Assembly: GCA_944349405.1 (NCBI GenBank)
Contig: CALVMY010000099.1
Location: 1-49,193 of the forward strand
Reading direction: 5' to 3'
DNA from: an uncultured Bacilli bacterium
GTDB taxonomy: Bacteria; Bacillota_I; Bacilli_A; RFN20; CAG-826
DNA length: 49,193 bases
The translations under genes and the position numbers were made by a program. Shown here piece by piece: positions 1 to 48,517 of this stretch. Positions within the stretch are counted from its first letter, which is position 1. Each line of letters starts with the position of its first letter. The notes under the pieces are model-generated. The model was not told the origin of the DNA. It searched no databases and saw only the letters and a list, made by a program, of their open reading frames with translations.

Positions 1-90
1 CATCATTCAACTGTTGTAACAATTAAAGGAAAATCATATAGACTAAAAAATATGTACGAAACTTCGAATACTGAATCTGAACATTCATAA
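1..90 (+). mobile_element. istB: 3' end of an IS21-family istB (helper ATPase) gene, cut by the left window edge
   Basis: Frame 1 reads HHSTVVTIKGKSYRLKNMYETSNTESEHS*. The HHS-x4-IKG-x-SYRLK tail is the characteristic C-terminus of IstB/DnaC-like IS21 helper proteins. Only 29 codons are visible and the IS terminus cannot be located. Confidence 0.5.
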
Positions 91-207
91 GTTAAAAAAA
101 ATGTACATTTTTATCTTGAAATTAATAGATTAACAATATAATTAAGAATATTAATTATAAAAATTATTTATACTTCTTAACTAAGTTATGTGTTCTATTT
201 ATTTTCA

Positions 208-978
208 CTATTTATAATAAACTTTATATAGATATAACCCCTCTGAAGGTGCTTGATAATTTATTATTTTTCTGTTATCTTCATTATTCGAATCATCTAA
301 ATATTCTTTTATTTTCTTTAAAGTAATCTTATTATCGTTATAAGCTAAAATAGTGCCTACTATTTTTCTTATCTCATATCTCATAAAACCATTACCAATA
401 AATGTTAATTTAAGATATTTATTATTTATTTTTGATATTTTTATATCAAAAATAGTGCGAACATAATTATTTAACTTATCTTCTTTTTTAGAAGTAAAGT
501 TAATAAAATTATGTTCGCCTTTAAATAAAGTGATTACTTCTTTTATTTTATTTAAATCAATATTAGATTTATATAATTCATAATTTCTTTTTAAGGGATC
601 ATATTCTTTATAGTTTATTAAATAATAATATTCTTTTTTAATAGAAGATAATCTAGCTGAAAATAAAAGAGACACCTCTTTTATTTTCTTTATATAGATA
701 TCTTTAGGCAATAATTTATTTATCTTATATAAGAATAAAGATAAATCATTAATTTTTTTAAGAGTAAAAAAATTAGCTACTTGATTAATAGCATGTACTC
801 CTTTATCAGTTCTTCCACTACTATATATCTTTATATTATTTATATTTAAGATAATAGATAATGCTTTTTCTATTTCTTCTTCGACACTTCTTTTATCATT
901 TTGAATCTGATAACCAAAAAAAGAAGATCCATCATATGAGAATGTTATTTTATAGTTATATTTGTTATCTTTATTCAT
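208..978 (-). CDS. truA: tRNA pseudouridine(38-40) synthase TruA
   Basis: 256 aa with the catalytic GRTDKGVHA motif. It lies directly downstream of ecfT, as in the conserved Firmicutes ecfA-ecfA'-ecfT-truA arrangement. Confidence 0.9.
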   Translation of the reverse strand: MNKDNKYNYKITFSYDGSSFFGYQIQNDKRSVEEEIEKALSIILNINNIKIYSSGRTDKGVHAINQVANFFTLKKINDLSLFLYKINKLLPKDIYIKKIKEVSLLFSARLSSIKKEYYYLINYKEYDPLKRNYELYKSNIDLNKIKEVITLFKGEHNFINFTSKKEDKLNNYVRTIFDIKISKINNKYLKLTFIGNGFMRYEIRKIVGTILAYNDNKITLKKIKEYLDDSNNEDNRKIINYQAPSEGLYLYKVYYK

Positions 979-1187
979 ATACTTTAATAAATATAATATC
1001 TTATATTAATCTTTTAAACATCCAATAGGAACAACTTTTATACCATCTTTTCTTGTATAAGCTATTTCTCCTCCACTAATAATCATTAGTAAATCTGGTT
1101 CTTTAATGTTTTGTTTTTTATCTTCTTTTGACTTAATTAATAAATCTTTAAGTTTTAAAAGATGTTTAGCCCCATAACTATAAAAAT

Positions 1188-2069
1188 CTAAATAGTTGGA
1201 ACTCCAAAGATAATATTAATAAAATCATCACAGCCTTGATAATAACAAGCAAAAATTGAAGCCGTAATCATTATTCCTCCTAAAAGAAGAACAAAGATAA
1301 TTGCAAATAAATCGCGATATGTAAAATGAAGTGTCTTATAATGGCTTCTTTTTTTATATGGATCATATCCTCTTGCTTCCATTGCTATAGCAAGTTCATC
1401 ACTTCTAGAAAAACAACTTACTAAAAGAGGAATAATTAAAGTAGTAATCGATCTTATTTTACTCATTAAAAAACCACGATTATAATCAACACCTCTACTT
1501 TTTTGAGCATTCATTATTCGGTTAGATTCATTTAAAAGAGTTGGAATAAATCTTAATGCTAAAGAAATAGTTAAAGATACTATTTGAGTAGGGAATTTTA
1601 AAAGCTTTAAAGGAGTTAAATACCATTCTAAAGCATAAGTTATATCCATTGGTAAAGTCGTTGAAGTTAAAATAATTGTTAAAGCAACCATTAAAACTAA
1701 TCTTAAAATAATATGCCCAACATTAAGTAAGCCATCATAATATAAAGAATAACCATTTTCAAAAGTATGAATTAAATATTTTCCTTCATTTGGTATAAAA
1801 AACATAAATATAAGAAGGAAAATGAACATAATCCACATTGAAGATAAACTTTTAAAAAAAGAACGGAAAGAAACTTTACCAATTATCATAATTAAAGCGA
1901 TAAAAAAGGTTAAAACTCCTAAAATAATAAATCTATTTGTATAATTTCCATATGGTAAAAATGTAACGACCATTAAAAGGATTAAACTAAATAGTTTAAA
2001 ACGAGGGTCGAGTCGATGAATAATCGTATTATATGGAGAATATTTACCTAAAATATTGCTATTTGCCAT
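1188..2069 (-). CDS. ecfT: ECF transporter transmembrane (T) component
   Basis: 293 aa polytopic membrane protein with the two Ala-Arg-Gly coupling motifs (AQKSRGVD, AMEARGYD). Its start overlaps the ecfA2 stop by 11 nt. Confidence 0.85.
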   Translation of the reverse strand: MANSNILGKYSPYNTIIHRLDPRFKLFSLILLMVVTFLPYGNYTNRFIILGVLTFFIALIMIIGKVSFRSFFKSLSSMWIMFIFLLIFMFFIPNEGKYLIHTFENGYSLYYDGLLNVGHIILRLVLMVALTIILTSTTLPMDITYALEWYLTPLKLLKFPTQIVSLTISLALRFIPTLLNESNRIMNAQKSRGVDYNRGFLMSKIRSITTLIIPLLVSCFSRSDELAIAMEARGYDPYKKRSHYKTLHFTYRDLFAIIFVLLLGGIMITASIFACYYQGCDDFINIIFGVPTI

Positions 2070-2958
2070 ATTTTTCTCCTATTTTATCGACTAATTCATC
2101 GATTGTATTTATATTAGTTATATCTTTATTAAAACCAAAATCAGCTAAATATCGTTTAAATTTATAAAAAGAAGGGATTTCTAAAGAAAAATTACTTAAA
2201 TCTTTAGAATTAAAAAGTTCACTTGGAGTAACCATTTTTATAAAGCGAGAATCTTTTAAAACTACAACTTTTGAAGCATATTCCATTACTACATCCATAT
2301 CATGAGTAACAATAATAATCGTTGTTCCTTTTTCATGAATCTTTTTAATTAAAGATAAAATTTCTTTTTTTCCATTTGGATCAAGTCCAACAGTTGGCTC
2401 ATCTAAAACTAAAATTGAAGGGGATGAAGCAATAATTCCAGCAATAGCAACTCTTCTTTTTTCTCCTCCACTTATTTCAAAAGGACTTTTTTCATAATAT
2501 GTATAATCAATTCCAACCTCATCTAATGCTTCGATAGCTCTTTTTTTAGCTTCTTCTTCACTTAAACCGAAATTTAAAGGTCCGAACATTACATCTTTAA
2601 TAATTGTATCGCTAAAAAGTTGATATTCTGGAAATTGGAAAACCATTCCGACTTCTTTTCTTAAATGAGAAAATCTTTTAAGTTCTCTTTTTTTGATATT
2701 TTTTTCTTTTTTTAATCTTTTTATTATTTCTTTATCACCAGTTACATAATAATCTAAAACTTTTGTATAGCCGCTTGTAGGTAGTAAAAGACCATTTAAA
2801 GTTTGAACTAGAGTAGATTTACCACTTCCTGTATGACCAACTAAAGCGATAAAATCACCTTTTTCAATTGAAAAAGTAACCTCTTTTAAGGCGTCATAAT
2901 GATTTGGGTCTTTTTTGTTATATATAAAAGATATGTTGTTAAAAGAGATTAAAGACAT
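2059..2958 (-). CDS. ecfA2: ECF transporter ATPase subunit A2
   Basis: Walker A GHTGSGKST, ABC signature ISGGEKRR, Walker B ILVLDEP. Overlaps ecfA1 by 10 nt. Confidence 0.85.
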   Translation of the reverse strand: MSLISFNNISFIYNKKDPNHYDALKEVTFSIEKGDFIALVGHTGSGKSTLVQTLNGLLLPTSGYTKVLDYYVTGDKEIIKRLKKEKNIKKRELKRFSHLRKEVGMVFQFPEYQLFSDTIIKDVMFGPLNFGLSEEEAKKRAIEALDEVGIDYTYYEKSPFEISGGEKRRVAIAGIIASSPSILVLDEPTVGLDPNGKKEILSLIKKIHEKGTTIIIVTHDMDVVMEYASKVVVLKDSRFIKMVTPSELFNSKDLSNFSLEIPSFYKFKRYLADFGFNKDITNINTIDELVDKIGEKYGK

Positions 2959-3773
2959 ATATATTTAGCAAGTTCCTCAATAGTTTTTATATTTTCATCG
3001 ATTTCAATACCTTTTGTTTTTAATTTATTTTTAATTTTTAAAACAAAAGGGATATCTAGATTAATTTTTTTCATTTCTTCTTCGTTTTCAAATACTTTTG
3101 AAGGAATATCGTTTTTATATATTTTTCCTTCATTTAAAACGATTACTCGATCACTAAGATAAGCTTCTTCAATATCGTGAGTAATTGAAATGACGGTTAA
3201 ATCAGGATTTTCTTTTTTCATTCTTAAAATTAAGTTTCTTATTTCTTCAACTCCTTCAGGATCAAGCATTGAAGTTGCTTCATCAAAAATCATTATTTTT
3301 AAATTTAAAGCTAATATTCCAGCTATTGCAACTCTTTGTTTTTGGCCTCCACTTAATTCTTCTGGTTCTTTAGTTAAATAATTTTCCATTCCTACTTTTT
3401 TAGAATATTCTTTAACTATTTTTTTCATTTCCTCTTGTTTTATATTTCGATTTTCAAGACCAAAAGCAATATCGTCTTCTACGGTTGAACCAATAAATTG
3501 ATTATCTGGATTTTGAAAGACAATTCCAATTTTATTTCTGATATTTTTAATATTTTTTTCATTTAATTCTTCATTATCAATATATATCTTTCCTTTATTA
3601 GGTTCTAAAATGTAGCTTAAAAGTTTAGCTAGTGTTGATTTACCACTACCGTTATGTCCAATAAGAGTAACATATTCTCCCTTGTTAATAGAAAAAGATA
3701 CATTATTAAGTATCTTTTTCTCTTTTTCATAACTAAATGAAAGATTTTCGACCTTTATTACTTCTTGTTCCAT
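2949..3773 (-). CDS. ecfA1: ECF transporter ATPase subunit A1
   Basis: Walker A GHNGSGKST, signature LSGGQKQR, Walker B IMIFDEATS. First gene of the ecfA1-ecfA2-ecfT-truA operon. Confidence 0.85.
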   Translation of the reverse strand: MEQEVIKVENLSFSYEKEKKILNNVSFSINKGEYVTLIGHNGSGKSTLAKLLSYILEPNKGKIYIDNEELNEKNIKNIRNKIGIVFQNPDNQFIGSTVEDDIAFGLENRNIKQEEMKKIVKEYSKKVGMENYLTKEPEELSGGQKQRVAIAGILALNLKIMIFDEATSMLDPEGVEEIRNLILRMKKENPDLTVISITHDIEEAYLSDRVIVLNEGKIYKNDIPSKVFENEEEMKKINLDIPFVLKIKNKLKTKGIEIDENIKTIEELAKYICL

Positions 3774-3791
3774 TTTTAAAGTAAGTTAATT

Positions 3792-3887
3792 AATAATGCT
3801 AAATAGATAAATATTTAAAATATTTATCTTACTAATAATATTAATATTATTAGTCAGGTAATCATTATTACCTTATTTAGCATTATT
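3792..3887. repeat. 96-nt nested palindromic element folding as a perfect four-way junction (outer 14-bp stem enclosing three hairpins)
   Basis: Outer arms 3792-3805 AATAATGCTAAATA and 3874-3887 TATTTAGCATTATT. Hairpin 1: 3806-3816 with 3818-3828 (11 bp). Hairpin 2: 3831-3842 with 3843-3854 (12 bp). Hairpin 3: 3856-3862 with 3867-3873 (7 bp, loop CATT). All 44 pairs are Watson-Crick; only 8 nt are unpaired (the centre base A3817 of hairpin 1, the TT and C linkers, and the CATT loop). Confidence 0.85.
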
Positions 3888-3970
3888 TTCAACAAAAATA
3901 ATGTATTTTTATATTAATATGTTTTTATACTTTTTAATTAATTTTTAACTTCTTAATTTACTAGATTATA

Positions 3971-4225
3971 TTATTTCAATATTTTCCATACACCAGTCTT
4001 ATCTGAACCACTACGTGTAATATATCCCTTTTCTTTTAAAGATTTTAAATAACGCTCAATAGTTCTTTTACTTTTGTTAATTAATAAGGCAAGTTTATCT
4101 GTTTTTAGTGTTGGATTATTTAAAAGTTCTTCAAGGATATCTTTTTCTATGTCGTTTACACCGACATTTACACCGACATTTACACCGACATATCTATTAC
4201 TCGATACTAAGTAATTACAAAAAAT
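3971..4225 (-). pseudogene. Start-less C-terminal remnant of a winged-helix (RecG-like/AlbA-type or Fic-associated) transcriptional regulator
   Basis: Minus-strand frame reads ...YVGVNVGVNVGVNDIEKDILEELLNNPTLKTDKLALLINKSKRTIERYLKSLKEKGYITRSGSDKTGVWKILK*. It is closed upstream by TGA at 4226-4228 and contains no ATG/GTG/TTG. A GVNV repeat followed by an HTH ending in G-x-WK is typical of the C-termini of that family. Confidence 0.5.
4155..4190. repeat. Perfect 12-bp tandem repeat x3 (TTTACACCGACA)
   Basis: Three identical head-to-tail copies at 4155-4166, 4167-4178 and 4179-4190. They encode the GVNV repeats of the minus-strand remnant. Confidence 0.95.
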
Positions 4226-4304
4226 TCACTATGGCTATAACTTTTAAAACACTTCTATTTATAGTTCTATTATCACTTCTACTACTTCTAGTTAAATTAT
4301 ATAT

Positions 4305-4336
4305 ATTAAAAATTCTAATACTCATAGTATTAGAAT
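4305..4336 (-). terminator. Rho-independent terminator downstream of the dCMP deaminase gene
   Basis: Perfect 11-bp stem 4312-4322 with 4326-4336 and a 3-nt loop, followed on the minus strand by TTTTT (plus-strand A run 4307-4311). Confidence 0.55.
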
Positions 4337-4367
4337 TAATAATTATTAATAATAAATAATATTCTTT

Positions 4368-4850
4368 TTAAAGAAGTTCTACTTCTTTATATCTTCCCTT
4401 ATATTCTTCATAAACTATTCCTGCTAAATCAAATAGTTTTCTAGAAGCTCTAGTTTCTAAAGAATCATGGTATTTATCACTTAAATAGATAATTTTTTTA
4501 ATACCGACTTGAATGATTGCTTTAGCGCATTCATTACAAGGAAAAAGAGTAACATATAAAGTACATCCCTTTAAAGACATATTATTTTTAGTATTTAAAA
4601 TAGCGTTAAATTCAGCATGACATACATAAAGATATTTACTATCTAAATCTTCATTTTTTGCCCAACTAAGTTTATTTTCATCGAGTCCTTTAGGCATTCC
4701 ATTATATCCAATTGAAACTACCTTTTTATCATCATCAACAATACATGCTCCGACTTGAGTTGAAGGATCTTTACTTCTTTTTTTACTTAAAAGGGCAATC
4801 CCCATAAAATATTCATCCCAAGTGATGATATCTTTTCTTCCTTCATTCAT
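4368..4850 (-). CDS. comEB: dCMP (deoxycytidylate) deaminase, ComEB family
   Basis: 160 aa with the zinc-binding cytidine/deoxycytidylate deaminase motifs CHAEFNAI and PCNECAKAI. Confidence 0.85.
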   Translation of the reverse strand: MNEGRKDIITWDEYFMGIALLSKKRSKDPSTQVGACIVDDDKKVVSIGYNGMPKGLDENKLSWAKNEDLDSKYLYVCHAEFNAILNTKNNMSLKGCTLYVTLFPCNECAKAIIQVGIKKIIYLSDKYHDSLETRASRKLFDLAGIVYEEYKGRYKEVELL

Positions 4851-4852
4851 CG

Positions 4853-6274
4853 TTATTTTTCCTCTTTATTATTAAGTGATAATTTATCAAAATCTTTATC
4901 TTTTATATTCTCATCTTTTAAAAGAATAAATGAGATAATCGATGTTAAAAGTGATAATCCTTCTAAAACAACAACTAATATTGGATAAGCATTTAATTCA
5001 TAAGTTGAATCTAAATTTGAATAATATGTCGAAAGAGTAAATAAAACTAAAATTAAAATCGATAGAACACATCCAAAAATATTAAAAATTAAATTATTTA
5101 ATCGATAAGCATTATATTTTCGAATCATTCTAAAAGAATAAAGTAAGGAAAGAGAAATAAATACAGCGCTTAAAATATAAATAAAATATCCAACAAATCC
5201 TAAATAGAAACTTAATCCATTATTAGAATCTGAAAAATGTTCTAAAAGTTCGTTTAAATAAGAATGAATTGTATAATTTGATGCTCCTGAAATAATAATA
5301 CGATAAGAAATTAAAACTAAAGCACCTAATCCTAAAAAAGATGAAACAATAAGTAAAATTCTTCTACTAATAACTATAAATTCTTTTACTACACTAGCTT
5401 TAAAAACATAATATCCACCAACTGCAACTAAATAAACTAAACAAATTATAATAAAAGCTAAAATAGTAGGAGAATACATTAAAACACTTGTATCTAATGA
5501 AATAGAAATCATTAAAGCCATTGAAACTAATAAATCAATTAAAACTAAAACATAATAATTATTTTTATAATCTCTTCGATTCATCTTATTAAGACCTTGA
5601 ATTAAAACAAGTAAGAATAATCCTATTGAAGTTCCCATAAATCCTAATGTAAAGATAAACTGCAATATTGGAGCAAGACCATGAGCTATACCATTACCAA
5701 TATAACCATAAGAAAAACCTTTAATGACGCTAGACCAATTATCAATTAAAAAATGATATGGATAAATTGCTCCTTCACTATTTGAAATAACTAAAGGTAA
5801 AAATGAAAAAATTGAACCAAGTAAAAGAATAAAAGCAGCCGAGATAAATGAAGCAATATGAAATATTTTTTCTACCTTTAACATCTTTTCAGCACTAATC
5901 TTACTTTTTTTAGAAGCAAAATCTTCGTTATATTCTCTAATTTTTTGCTTTTTTATATTTTTATATTCATCTTCATTTAATCTTTTAATTTTAGAATTAA
6001 AGACTCTTTGTTTAATTTCTTTTTGTTCTTTTAAATATTCTTCTTCATCAATTACATCAATATCAATTGTATTGATTGATTGAGTTTCACAAGCACTAAC
6101 ACTAGTAAAGCGATATCCACATTTAGGGCAGATTTTCGAATTAGCATTTGTAACCGCATTACATCTTGGACATCTAATATTATGATCGCTTAAAGAAGCG
6201 CCACAATCGATACAAAATTTCGCATTGTCATTATTTTCTTTACCGCAGTTTGGACATTTTTTCATATCTAACAT
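4853..6274 (-). CDS. Double zinc-ribbon, polytopic membrane protein of unknown function
   Basis: N-terminus has two CxxC-x(n)-CxxC ribbons (CPNCG...CIDCG, CPRCN...CPKCG). These are followed by a Lys/Glu-rich linker and about 9 hydrophobic segments. Confidence 0.6.
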   Translation of the reverse strand: MLDMKKCPNCGKENNDNAKFCIDCGASLSDHNIRCPRCNAVTNANSKICPKCGYRFTSVSACETQSINTIDIDVIDEEEYLKEQKEIKQRVFNSKIKRLNEDEYKNIKKQKIREYNEDFASKKSKISAEKMLKVEKIFHIASFISAAFILLLGSIFSFLPLVISNSEGAIYPYHFLIDNWSSVIKGFSYGYIGNGIAHGLAPILQFIFTLGFMGTSIGLFLLVLIQGLNKMNRRDYKNNYYVLVLIDLLVSMALMISISLDTSVLMYSPTILAFIIICLVYLVAVGGYYVFKASVVKEFIVISRRILLIVSSFLGLGALVLISYRIIISGASNYTIHSYLNELLEHFSDSNNGLSFYLGFVGYFIYILSAVFISLSLLYSFRMIRKYNAYRLNNLIFNIFGCVLSILILVLFTLSTYYSNLDSTYELNAYPILVVVLEGLSLLTSIISFILLKDENIKDKDFDKLSLNNKEEK

Positions 6275-41096: not shown

Positions 41097-41567
41097 GGTA
41101 AAATGTTACAACCAAAAAGATTATTCTTCAACTTATATTTATTAATAAATCATTTATTAAATAGGTAATTTCTTTATTTTTTTACTTAATTTTATTTTCT
41201 TTCTTTTATAAAGATATTTTTAATCTCGGATTAAAAATATAATTATTTTATTAAATAATTAAGAAAATTGTCTTTTTTAATTAAAGATAAATATTATCCT
41301 ATATCATTAATAGGTATTAATACTTTTTTGCTATTTCATCATTTATCTCTATATAAGGATTAGATATAAAGAAAATATTTTTAATAGTTTATTAAGTTTC
41401 ATATTTTTAAGACTTCCTTTTTAAGAAACAATTATTAATCTTTATAATCTAAATTTAAAAAAATATTTTATTTACAATTGAAGAAATAATTAATCTATAG
41501 CTTATAGGAATAAATATCACTCTTTTGACATTAAAATGTTTCATATTGATTAAAAAAATATAATTTA

Positions 41568-41607
41568 CTTTATAAAAGAAAAGAAACGACTTTAAATGTC
41601 GTTTCTT
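41568..41607 (-). terminator. Rho-independent terminator of the alcohol dehydrogenase gene
   Basis: Perfect 10-bp stem 41581-41590 AAGAAACGAC with 41598-41607 GTCGTTTCTT and a 7-nt loop. The T-rich tail on the minus strand is TTCTTTTAT. Confidence 0.7.
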
Positions 41608-41632
41608 TTTAATTATAAATTATTTTATTTAA

Positions 41633-42817
41633 TTAGAATTTATAAGGAATGTTATAGTAGCAGCATTTGAAGAGCTCTTCCATAGTCTTATCATCGATAG
41701 GATTTGGATTAGTTCCTGTACATGCATCACCAACTGCTTCATGAGCAATGAATGATAATTTGCTTAAGAATTCATCTTCTTTAACACCGAATTCTTGCAT
41801 TGAATGTGGGATATTTAAAAGAGTATTTAATTCATGAATTCTATTGATTAATCCTTGTGTTTGTTCACGAGCATCATGTCCTTGAATACCTAATGCAGTT
41901 GCGATTTGAGCATATCTTTCAAGAGCAACTTTATTATTTGCATTGTATTCAATAACGTGTGGTAAATACATAGCATTAGCACAACCATGTGGAATATGAC
42001 CTGTTGAGAATGCAGCACCACTCTTGTGAGCCATTGAGTGGACAATACCAAGTAAAGCATTTGAGAATGCCATACCTGCTAAACATTGAGCATAGTGCAT
42101 TTCTTCTCTACCTTTTCCTTCTGGATTGTTATATGAATCAACAAGATATGTATTAACCATTTGAATTGCTTTTAATGATAAGCATTCTGTAAATGGTGTA
42201 GCGATTGTACCAACATATGATTCAACTGCGTGAGTTAAAGCATCCATTCCAGTATAAGCAACTTGGACTTTTGGTAAACCTCTAACGATATCTGGATCAA
42301 CAATAGCAACATCTGGGGTAATTTCGAAGTCTGCTAATGGATATTTAATACCTTTTGCATAATCAGTAATAACTGAGAAAGCTGTAACTTCTGTAGCTGT
42401 ACCACTTGTTGAAGGAATAGCACAGAATTTAGCTTTTGTTCTTAAGTGTGGGAAATTGAATGGAGTAACTAAATCTTCAAAAGTTGTATTTGGATATTCA
42501 TAGAATGCCCACATAGCTTTAGCTGCGTCAATTGGAGAACCACCGCCGATTGAAACAATCCAATCTGGTTCGAATTTTCTCATTGCTTCAGCGCCTTTCA
42601 TAACTGTTTCGATTGATGGATCTGGTTCGACGCCTTCGAATAATTCAACTTCAAAACCTGCTTCTTTTAAATAATTGACTGTTTTGTCTAAGAAACCACT
42701 AGCTCTCATTGAATGACCACCGGTAACAACGATAGCTCTTTTACCTCTGAGTGTCTTTAATTCTGCTAAAGAACCACTTCCGTAGTAAATGTCTCTTGGT
42801 AATGTAAATCTTGACAT
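41633..42817 (-). CDS. Iron-containing (group III) alcohol dehydrogenase
   Basis: 394 aa with GGGSPIDAAK, the metal-ligand His cluster (H-x3-H: HSMAHKSG ... HGCANA), and a strong RBS AGGAGG. Confidence 0.85.
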   Translation of the reverse strand: MSRFTLPRDIYYGSGSLAELKTLRGKRAIVVTGGHSMRASGFLDKTVNYLKEAGFEVELFEGVEPDPSIETVMKGAEAMRKFEPDWIVSIGGGSPIDAAKAMWAFYEYPNTTFEDLVTPFNFPHLRTKAKFCAIPSTSGTATEVTAFSVITDYAKGIKYPLADFEITPDVAIVDPDIVRGLPKVQVAYTGMDALTHAVESYVGTIATPFTECLSLKAIQMVNTYLVDSYNNPEGKGREEMHYAQCLAGMAFSNALLGIVHSMAHKSGAAFSTGHIPHGCANAMYLPHVIEYNANNKVALERYAQIATALGIQGHDAREQTQGLINRIHELNTLLNIPHSMQEFGVKEDEFLSKLSFIAHEAVGDACTGTNPNPIDDKTMEELFKCCYYNIPYKF

Positions 42818-48454: not shown

Positions 48455-48483
48455 TATTAAAAACGGAGTTATTAACTCCGTTT
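48455..48483 (-). terminator. Rho-independent terminator downstream of the enolase fragment
   Basis: Perfect 10-bp stem AAACGGAGTT-ATT-AACTCCGTTT (48461-48483), with T residues following on the minus strand. Confidence 0.55.
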
Positions 48484-48517
48484 TAACTATATAAATTTAA
48501 AGTTTATTTAGATTACA

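Follow-up and report, generated by a model that had tools for sequence, protein, structure and literature searches.

What kind of element is a 96-nt stretch of DNA in which four perfect palindromes nest into a single closed junction, and what part does it play in front of the operon it precedes? The question is raised by positions 3792-3887 of contig CALVMY010000099.1 (assembly GCA_944349405.1) from an uncultured Bacilli bacterium, a stretch of 49,193 nt that was analysed in full and is called the window below. The element ends 18 nt before the start of ecfA1, the first gene of ecfA1-ecfA2-ecfT-truA, just where a first-pass annotation of this DNA had placed it. The answer we favour, with a probability of roughly 0.55, is that these 96 nt serve the operon as its promoter and 5' leader, a region that one species has remodelled into perfect palindromes. 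Comparison with sister species shows the element to be a composite of a predicted promoter, an ancestral hairpin in the leader and a recent local insertion; it is a species-specific elaboration of an ordinary promoter and leader and not a new class of element.

Read on the plus strand, the element is composed as follows.

3792-3805 and 3874-3887, plus strand: outer arms, AATAATGCTAAATA and TATTTAGCATTATT, 14 bp
3806-3828, plus strand: hairpin C, made of GATAAATATTT (3806-3816), A3817 and AAATATTTATC (3818-3828), 11 bp
3829-3830: linker TT between hairpins C and B
3831-3854, plus strand: hairpin B, made of ACTAATAATATT (3831-3842) and AATATTATTAGT (3843-3854), 12 bp with a loop of 0 nt
3855: linker C between hairpins B and A
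3856-3873, plus strand: hairpin A, made of AGGTAAT (3856-3862), loop CATT and ATTACCT (3867-3873), 7 bp

Direct reading of these parts gives 14 + 11 + 12 + 7 = 44 Watson-Crick pairs and 8 unpaired nt, in full agreement with the stems listed by the first-pass annotation, whose expectation of a structure beyond chance was likewise borne out by the shuffle control it had named (none of 3,200 shuffles comes close). The computed fold is a four-way junction in which the 14-bp stem encloses three hairpins, with 41 pairs as RNA and 40 as DNA; hairpin B loses two pairs and hairpin C one, because a loop of 0 or 1 nt cannot be closed for steric reasons. In ViennaRNA the junction is both the minimum free energy (MFE) and the centroid fold, at -30.9 kcal/mol (z -8.0) for RNA and -24.7 kcal/mol (z -9.3) for DNA, and in neither case was its energy equalled by any of 200 shuffles. 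A further 3,000 dinucleotide shuffles of the element reached at best -20.8 kcal/mol and 36 pairs, with none matching it, and three dinucleotide-shuffled copies of the whole window contained no 96-nt segment more stable than -22 to -23. Among 6,138 sliding 96-nt windows of the real sequence the element ranks second in stability, and within 296 nt of its natural context the junction is still the MFE and centroid fold. The nested palindromes are genuine and far beyond chance. Two adjacent hairpins are not extraordinary here, because perfect hairpins are common in this genome; the exact 14-bp closure around them is. A fifth perfect palindrome at 3881-3903, CATTATTTT caaca AAAATAATG, overlaps the outer arm, and it has weaker counterparts (TTAATTT agttg AAATTAA) in the related loci L012-L014.

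The meaning of these parts becomes apparent on the minus strand, which carries the dCMP deaminase gene, ecfA1, ecfA2, ecfT and truA. In the order of the predicted transcription, its features are the following.

4850-4368, minus strand: dCMP deaminase gene, separated from ecfA1 by a gap of 594 nt
4311..4337, minus strand: intrinsic terminator of the dCMP deaminase gene, a 12-bp stem with a T-run
3881..3903, minus strand: extra 9-bp perfect palindrome whose loop holds GTTGA of the -35 region; it excludes the outer stem and vice versa
3892-3887, minus strand: TTGAAA, the -35 hexamer inferred for the ecf promoter; the outer stem begins with its final A
3874..3887, minus strand: 5' outer arm AATAATGCTAAATA, read from its sequence and its position between -35 and -10 as most of the promoter spacer
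3856..3873, minus strand: hairpin A, AGGTAAT AATG ATTACCT, with the predicted -10 in its 5' arm and loop
3869-3864, minus strand: -10 hexamer AATAAT, within hairpin A
3831..3854, minus strand: hairpin B, a 24-nt perfect palindrome and ancestral hairpin of the predicted leader, 1-5 nt past the expected transcription start
3781..3830 (+/-3 nt), minus strand: lineage-specific insertion of about 50 nt, in which AA is followed by hairpin C, then by the 3' outer arm and lastly by AATTAACTTAC
3806..3828, minus strand: hairpin C, GATAAATATTT T AAATATTTATC, found in this species only
3792..3805, minus strand: 3' outer arm, an exact inverted copy of the spacer segment 3874-3887
3774..3780, minus strand: final 7 nt of the leader, TTTAAAA, which precede the ecfA1 ATG and are common to the sister species
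2949..3773, minus strand: ecfA1

We infer the promoter from its match to the consensus and from a phylogenetic footprint. TTGAAA and AATAAT are near-consensus hexamers whose 17-nt spacer falls within the 16-18 nt usual for sigma-70-type promoters; the site scores 10 of 12 consensus positions and is the best promoter-like site in 3600-4500. In seven aligned sequences from six species, GTTGA and GTAATAAT are invariant while the spacer between them drifts, and from these conserved blocks we deduce that the 5' outer arm would be the spacer, that hairpin A would contain the -10 and that transcription would start just 5' of hairpin B, at about 3859-3855 as predicted from the -10. A promoter at this place is also called for by the neighbouring genes. 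The dCMP deaminase gene has its own terminator, so that the ecf operon needs a promoter of its own, and in L095 the genes upstream of ecfA1 are divergent, which likewise requires an ecfA1 promoter in that gap. Of the operon's genes, ecfA1 and ecfA2 pass the cut-offs of the NCBIfam equivalogs TIGR04520 (371 bits against 315) and TIGR04521 (339.5 against 330), in line with the ECF operon named in the annotation, and truA matches TIGR00071. No Shine-Dalgarno sequence is seen upstream of ecfA1 (3774-3791), and the same holds for the sister-species orthologues. On visual inspection, an obvious Shine-Dalgarno sequence is likewise missing from about a third or more of the window's genes.

The comparison that separates old from new parts involved relatives whose EcfA1 is 86-89% identical to that of the window (L011-L014, metagenome-assembled genomes of uncultured Bacilli in GTDB) and two more distant ones at 78-80% (L095 and L097). 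Upstream of ecfA1 these relatives have a common layout: GTTGA(A/T)A is separated by a 17-nt spacer from (G)TAATAAT, about 6 nt further on comes a perfect hairpin with a T-run behind it, and the ATG follows after about 10 nt. Their spacers have the same length as that of the window and a different sequence. A counterpart of hairpin B occupies the same position in L012, L013, L014, L095 and L097, with differing stems and loops and with a T-run after it: the stem is CTAATTAATT/AATTAATTAG in L012, L013 and, with a G.T pair, L014, CTAATTAATAA/TTATTAATTAG in L095, CTAATTAATAAA/TTTATTAATTAG in L097 and CTAATAATATT/AATATTATTAG in the window. Across the six species this amounts to four different stem sequences with loops of 0-5 nt, at a distance from a 5' end that is itself predicted. 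The conserved ends of the hairpin, CTAAT and ATTAG, lie 22, 24 or 27 nt apart depending on the species, and this variable spacing fits a nucleic-acid hairpin and argues against an operator for a fixed dimer. By this comparison, hairpin B is ancestral and has apparently been maintained as a hairpin. In the sister species, hairpin B with its T-run has the architecture of a terminator or attenuator; in the window the T-run has been moved about 50 nt away. Elsewhere in the window and the related loci, the hairpin B motif was found only as a degenerate match in a coding region (L100 919-944), apart from one unrelated viral contig. In L014 a zero-loop 24-nt palindrome, ATTAATAATATTAATATTATTAAT (3902-3925), stands just upstream of the -35 and equals the window's hairpin B at 22 of 24 positions; L014 also has its own, different hairpin B downstream of it. 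This palindrome could reflect recurrent origin or a transfer between palindromes.

The same alignments bear on the setting of the element. It had been proposed that the ribosomal-protein/rpoA synteny expected upstream of ecfA1 is broken at this very point. In four distant relatives (L094, L099, L100 and L103, 74-80% identity), ecfA1 lies at most 25 nt downstream of the dCMP deaminase gene, with no promoter or hairpin between them. The adjacency of these two genes is thus ancestral for the whole clade, and so is the loss of rplQ/rpoA synteny, which does not mark a break at the element.

What the window adds to the ancestral layout is an insertion of about 50 nt between hairpin B and TTTAAAAATG. 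It is absent from L011-L014, L095 and L097, and in all of these except L011 hairpin B runs directly into T-run..AAAATGG. The 3' outer arm within this insertion agrees in 14 of 14 bases with 3874-3887, 68 nt away, read as its reverse complement, and is absent in five sister species; its sequence occurs exactly twice in the window, and it copies the window's own spacer, unlike the spacers of the sister species. Such an arm is the signature of what appears to be a template switch or an inverted duplication. It is known that perfect stems can be made as well as repaired by template switching (PMC8794818), and the element resembles template-switch or quasipalindrome-correction products (PMC8794818, PMC5453318) in its exact reverse-complement 3' arm 68 nt off, lacking in the sisters, and in a further substitution cluster in truA of the same operon. 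An exact nearby reverse complement absent from outgroups is found, however, for the 3' arm only: hairpin C has no template, and hairpin A, which is imperfect in the sister species (AAGTAAT..ATTATCT), was perfected by two AT-to-GC substitutions, one per arm, that turn A.C and G.T into G-C. Changes divided between the arms in this way are not accounted for by one template switch. The remaining 36 nt of the insertion have no identifiable source. A species with EcfA1 between 99% and 89% identity, by which the insertion could be dated, was sought in a set of 5.8 billion proteins and not found.

The favoured reading can then be followed along the minus strand. The -35 would be followed by the 17-nt spacer (the 5' outer arm, continued by 4 nt of hairpin A), the -10 in hairpin A and a start at about 3859-3855, and then by hairpin B, the insertion of about 50 nt (hairpin C, the inverted spacer copy and 11 nt), the last 7 nt and the ATG. 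Messages from the ecf promoter would carry hairpins B and C only, and the fold of 3858-3740 contains these two with the initiation region open. Of the candidates put forward in the first-pass annotation, a structured 5' leader therefore comes closest; it holds for hairpins B and C and fails for the 5' outer arm and hairpin A, which match the spacer and the -10 and lie upstream of the inferred start. As 5'-terminal stem-loops, B and C may protect or modulate the transcript, and in the sister species hairpin B with its T-run could serve as a promoter-proximal terminator or attenuator. In these messages the closed junction could not form; it would require DNA, or RNA that reads in from the gene upstream. 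Its perfect pairing would have arisen by template-switch or inverted-duplication mutations, of a kind that this lineage visibly often undergoes, possibly followed by selection for pairing.

Stem-loops at the 5' end of the message are found in the B. subtilis aprE and ermC leaders, among other examples. As reported in PMC2777011, such structures can act as mRNA protectors, the 5' untranslated region of ompA being a case in point (Emory, Bouvet and Belasco 1992). Hairpins B and C resemble these systems in lying a few nt from the predicted ecf 5' end and in the conserved position and pairing of B; they differ in their nearly pure A-T stems (about -6 to -9 kcal/mol), in the T-run that follows B in the sisters, in that no more than half of the element would be present in the RNA, and in that the start is a predicted one. 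A further complementarity was noted in this region: CAUUAUUAA (3790-3798), in which the 3' outer arm ends and AA is added, can pair without mismatch with UUAAUAAUG (3702-3710), the loop of a hairpin in the ecfA1 coding sequence plus 1 nt. A 9-bp loop interaction between the two in ecf-promoter transcripts is probably a coincidence, since the loop of the ecfA1 hairpin is polymorphic among strains.

Directly upstream of the element lies a site of variable gene content, which was compared across strains of the same species; the window's dCMP deaminase protein is found on 20 same-species metagenome contigs.

3971..4191, minus strand: gene remnant, the 3' end of a 439-aa gene, left by deletion between 12-nt repeats

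The remnant, already recognised as such in the first-pass annotation, belongs to a gene that is intact in other strains (439 or 448 aa, in the gap of L001, L002, L005, L006, L008 and L092) and that carries the Pfam domains SLFN_AlbA_2 and HATPase_c_4 and a winged helix-turn-helix (wHTH) domain. One set of a 12-nt tandem repeat, ATGTCGGTGTAA, lies upstream of this AlbA_2-type gene and another inside it, where it encodes GVNVGVNVGVN (window 4155-4191; L001 3685-3708 and 4855-4890). By recombination between the two sets the gene has been deleted in the window, L003, L004 and L007, with one to three repeat copies remaining, so that its presence or absence is a polymorphism within one species. L012 has a different, 475-aa AlbA_2-like gene in the same gap (2429-3856; its family was assigned by sequence reading alone), and the gap is empty in L011, L013 and L014. 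In L008 an IS3-family element (5125-5861, with an rve-type transposase of 207+ aa on the opposite strand) has entered the gap at ...GTATAAAAAC|, a point 37 nt upstream of the ecf -35, and the contig ends within it. A 24-nt unit, AATAGAACTATAAATAGAAGTTTC (about 4215-4290; alignment A1, columns 131-154), is present in one or two copies depending on the strain, and related motifs, TAGAAGT/TAGAACT, are found again in L012 and L014 at this intergenic location; both may be protein-binding repeats. From these comparisons the gap between the dCMP deaminase gene and ecfA1 is an insertion/deletion hotspot and looks like a variable cassette site across species.

The element also belongs to a lineage rich in perfect hairpins. 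Counting perfect stems of at least 11 bp with loops of at most 8 nt, the whole window contains 16, against 1.2 expected from shuffles and 1 in a mirror-repeat control, and stem lengths peak at exactly 12 bp (11 of 34). Nine of the hairpins lie within genes, against 1.3 +/- 1.2 in synonymous-codon shuffles, and 7 of the 16 fall in 1-4400, the ecf-truA operon. The clear terminators of this genome are 12-bp perfect stems as well (4311-4337, 41579-41609 and 48460-48484). In the one upstream of the element (4311-4337; alignment A1, columns 77-79), the loop is ATG, CAA or GGA among strains and the 12-bp stem is invariant. A check of 41100-41650 for a similar arrangement of promoter and hairpins gave no clear parallel.

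In several of the coding hairpins pairing is kept by compensatory changes that substitute amino acids; two cases follow. The most stable 96-nt window of the whole sequence (425-520, -35.1 kcal/mol) lies within truA, where GCGAACATAATT..AATTATGTTCGC and inner pairs (457-518) arose from five substitutions in 8 nt and a 3-nt insertion; the result is a perfect 12-bp inverted repeat that all four of the sister species examined lack, and the protein changes from ..DNFIRT to ..NNYVRT. To judge from its sequence, this cluster looks like a template-switch event. The second is in ecfA1.

3690..3721, minus strand: 12-bp perfect hairpin in ecfA1, codons ~18-28, with compensatory changes across the clade

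This hairpin reads AGA..TCT in the window and ATA..TAT in L012 and L014, and in L013 a D-to-Y change extends its stem to 15 bp. Across the clade it measures 12-15 bp (L011-L014 4044-4081), with changes of E to D or Y and of S to Y, and it is absent in the more distant L094 and L095. This lineage thus readily makes and keeps perfect palindromes, a habit that is a plausible mutational source of the element and makes its perfection less surprising. Enrichment of perfect inverted repeats at the sites where transcription begins and ends has been described for prokaryotes (PMC13155455).

Whether the element is instead a member of some dispersed family was addressed by searches that covered the 49-kb window, 150 kb of related loci and the collections named here, the copy counts applying to these and not to a complete genome of the species. 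No second copy was found in the window by exact search, and blastn-short with the element and with the 50-nt insertion gave, in the window and all loci, matches of at most 18 nt, the exceptions being the L014 palindrome and a chance IMG/VR palindrome (L091). A covariance model of the junction matched only itself over 150 kb (window and relatives). Exact element-derived 25-mers and longer patterns were absent from 185,579 GTDB species representatives, exact element-derived patterns were absent from 241 million JGI metagenome records, and an exact IMG/VR scan for hairpin C with the outer arm was empty; for the hairpin B palindrome IMG/VR gave a single match, which lies in low-complexity, AT-rich sequence of no relation and which we judge to be chance. 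Against a phage collection, blastn with the element and its flanks returned only a match to ABC-ATPase coding sequence, and a plasmid collection contained no match to the element. Rfam gave nothing at gathering thresholds over the whole window and nothing on the element at E<=10 (3650-4050), and ARAGORN found no tRNA or tmRNA. The element is single-copy in everything searched and matches no known repeat or RNA family there; the annotation had allowed that it might be a known repeat.

These results weigh most directly on the idea, also raised at first sight, that the element is a relic of mobile DNA: a nested miniature inverted-repeat transposable element (MITE), a single-strand origin, or a folded single-stranded DNA site of the attC or IS200/IS605 type. 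On its 5' side about 60% of it, namely the 5' outer arm with hairpins A and B, has its orthologue in the sister species' promoter and leader, only about 50 of the 96 nt are inserted, and neither a second copy nor a target-site duplication was found, all of which makes this origin the most improbable of those considered, even though the site is a hotspot with a variable cassette and, in one strain, an IS3-family insertion, and 36 nt of the insertion are without a source. Correia, BOX, RUP and REP are MITE or REP-type palindromic repeats. The element shares with them a size of about 100 nt, an intergenic position and strong self-complementarity, and it differs in being single-copy and mostly local ancestral sequence. 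Integron attC, which by design pairs imperfectly, and CTX phage attP are folded single-stranded recombination sites. The element recalls them in that about 100 nt of self-complementary sequence come after a gene cassette; here, in contrast, the pairing is perfect, without bulges or extrahelical bases, there is no array, the annotated flanks (dCMP deaminase, zinc-ribbon, leucine-rich repeat, ecfA1/A2/T and truA) include no integrase, other recombinase or Rep gene, and no core sites were seen on reading, by which alone they were judged and not by a dedicated search. It is also very improbable that the palindromes are operators at which dimeric proteins, for example the neighbouring wHTH protein, control the ecf promoter. 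The dyad symmetry over the -10 and +1 is perfect, the outer half-site CTAAT..ATTAG is kept across species and a wHTH gene lies immediately upstream in some strains, yet the 22- to 27-nt spacing of the half-sites is incompatible with a fixed dimer footprint, the stem interiors change while remaining complementary, no other gene of the window or the fetched loci is preceded by the motif (the two stray matches mentioned above aside), and the palindromes are unchanged in the many strains and species where the wHTH gene is absent or deleted. A DNA switch, in which supercoiling would extrude cruciforms or the four-way junction, sequester the -10 and spacer and make the ecf promoter supercoiling-sensitive, we hold to be improbable. 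All pairs are Watson-Crick and the centres of B and C measure 0 and 1 nt, which is typical of DNA palindromes and not of evolved RNA helices; the -10 and spacer are located within stems, hairpin A was perfected in this lineage, and inverted repeats in promoters can form cruciforms whose extrusion is favoured by AT-rich sequence (PMC3176155). The prerequisites of a putative extrusion, perfect AT-rich repeats with short spacers, are present over the -10 and start region, as in promoter cruciform repeats described elsewhere (PMC3176155, PMC13155455). The closed four-way layout with a 68-nt-spaced outer repeat is, however, no classical single cruciform, extrusion of arms 68 bp apart from duplex DNA is kinetically unlikely, and five sister species have the same promoter without the junction.

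The main alternative, possible though fairly unlikely, is that the whole junction is a selected RNA insulator in read-through from the variable AlbA_2-type gene, acting as 3'-end protection, terminator or RNase III-type processing site and separating the cassette from ecf-truA. The 5' outer arm and hairpin A are present only in read-through RNA, the junction remains the MFE and centroid fold in the 296-nt read-through context, the AlbA_2-type gene has no other terminator before the ecf promoter, and hairpin B with a T-run in the sister species is terminator architecture; the two pair-improving changes in hairpin A and the absence of polymorphism in the element among 10 strains speak for it as well. 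The terminator or insulator of the first-pass annotation is conceivable for read-through RNA; as an intrinsic terminator the element fails. The consensus scan found nothing on it, AATTAAC follows the outer stem and AAGATA follows hairpin B, so that a T/U run is found after hairpin B in the sister species only. Rho-independent and bidirectional terminators are likewise perfect intergenic stem-loops, and this genome's own have 12-bp perfect stems; the element departs from them in its lack of a T-run, its place downstream of a conserved promoter and its distance of 18 nt from a start codon. Moreover, L012 has a different AlbA_2-type gene at the site without the junction, and the element is unchanged where the upstream gene and its likely promoter have been deleted. 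The promoter-and-leader reading, to which we return, has points against it too. Consensus-like sites are frequent in DNA of 75% AT (9 found against 7.6 expected), and the promoter is predicted from consensus and footprint, as is its start. L011, the closest relative, has lost the 5' arm of hairpin B and with it the hairpin, which is therefore dispensable. No source or template for hairpin C was found in the window or related loci. Hairpin A shows three changes specific to this lineage, of which two make its pairing better, both of them AT-to-GC (p of about 0.01 by a hand estimate); this is the main hint that pairing itself was favoured, in a part that would lie outside ecf-promoter transcripts. 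Finally, the element is 100% identical in all 10 same-species sequences that reach it, and no variable site occurs in a stretch of 201 nt that begins 52 nt upstream of the element and reaches 35 nt inside ecfA1, against 19 in the 780 nt of ecfA1 coding sequence examined (hand Poisson P of about 0.007); this invariance would fit constraint on more than a promoter.

We consider it doubtful, and rather unlikely, that the four stems were selected as one junction around a housekeeping promoter, as a supercoiling DNA switch or an RNA insulator, and are the most visible product of a lineage process that writes perfect hairpins of about 12 bp into the operon despite amino-acid changes in ecfA1 and truA. 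Should the junction be functional, nature would offer here one of the rare promoters set within a multi-arm palindrome, and the excess of hairpins, some of which rewrite protein, would offer a bacterial test bed for template-switch mutagenesis against selection for DNA or RNA structure. On the favoured reading, a structure that looks designed would have been built from ordinary parts, namely a promoter, a hairpin long present in the leader and an inverted duplication of recent date, and the case warns us not to take nested perfect palindromes for mobile elements or structured RNAs.

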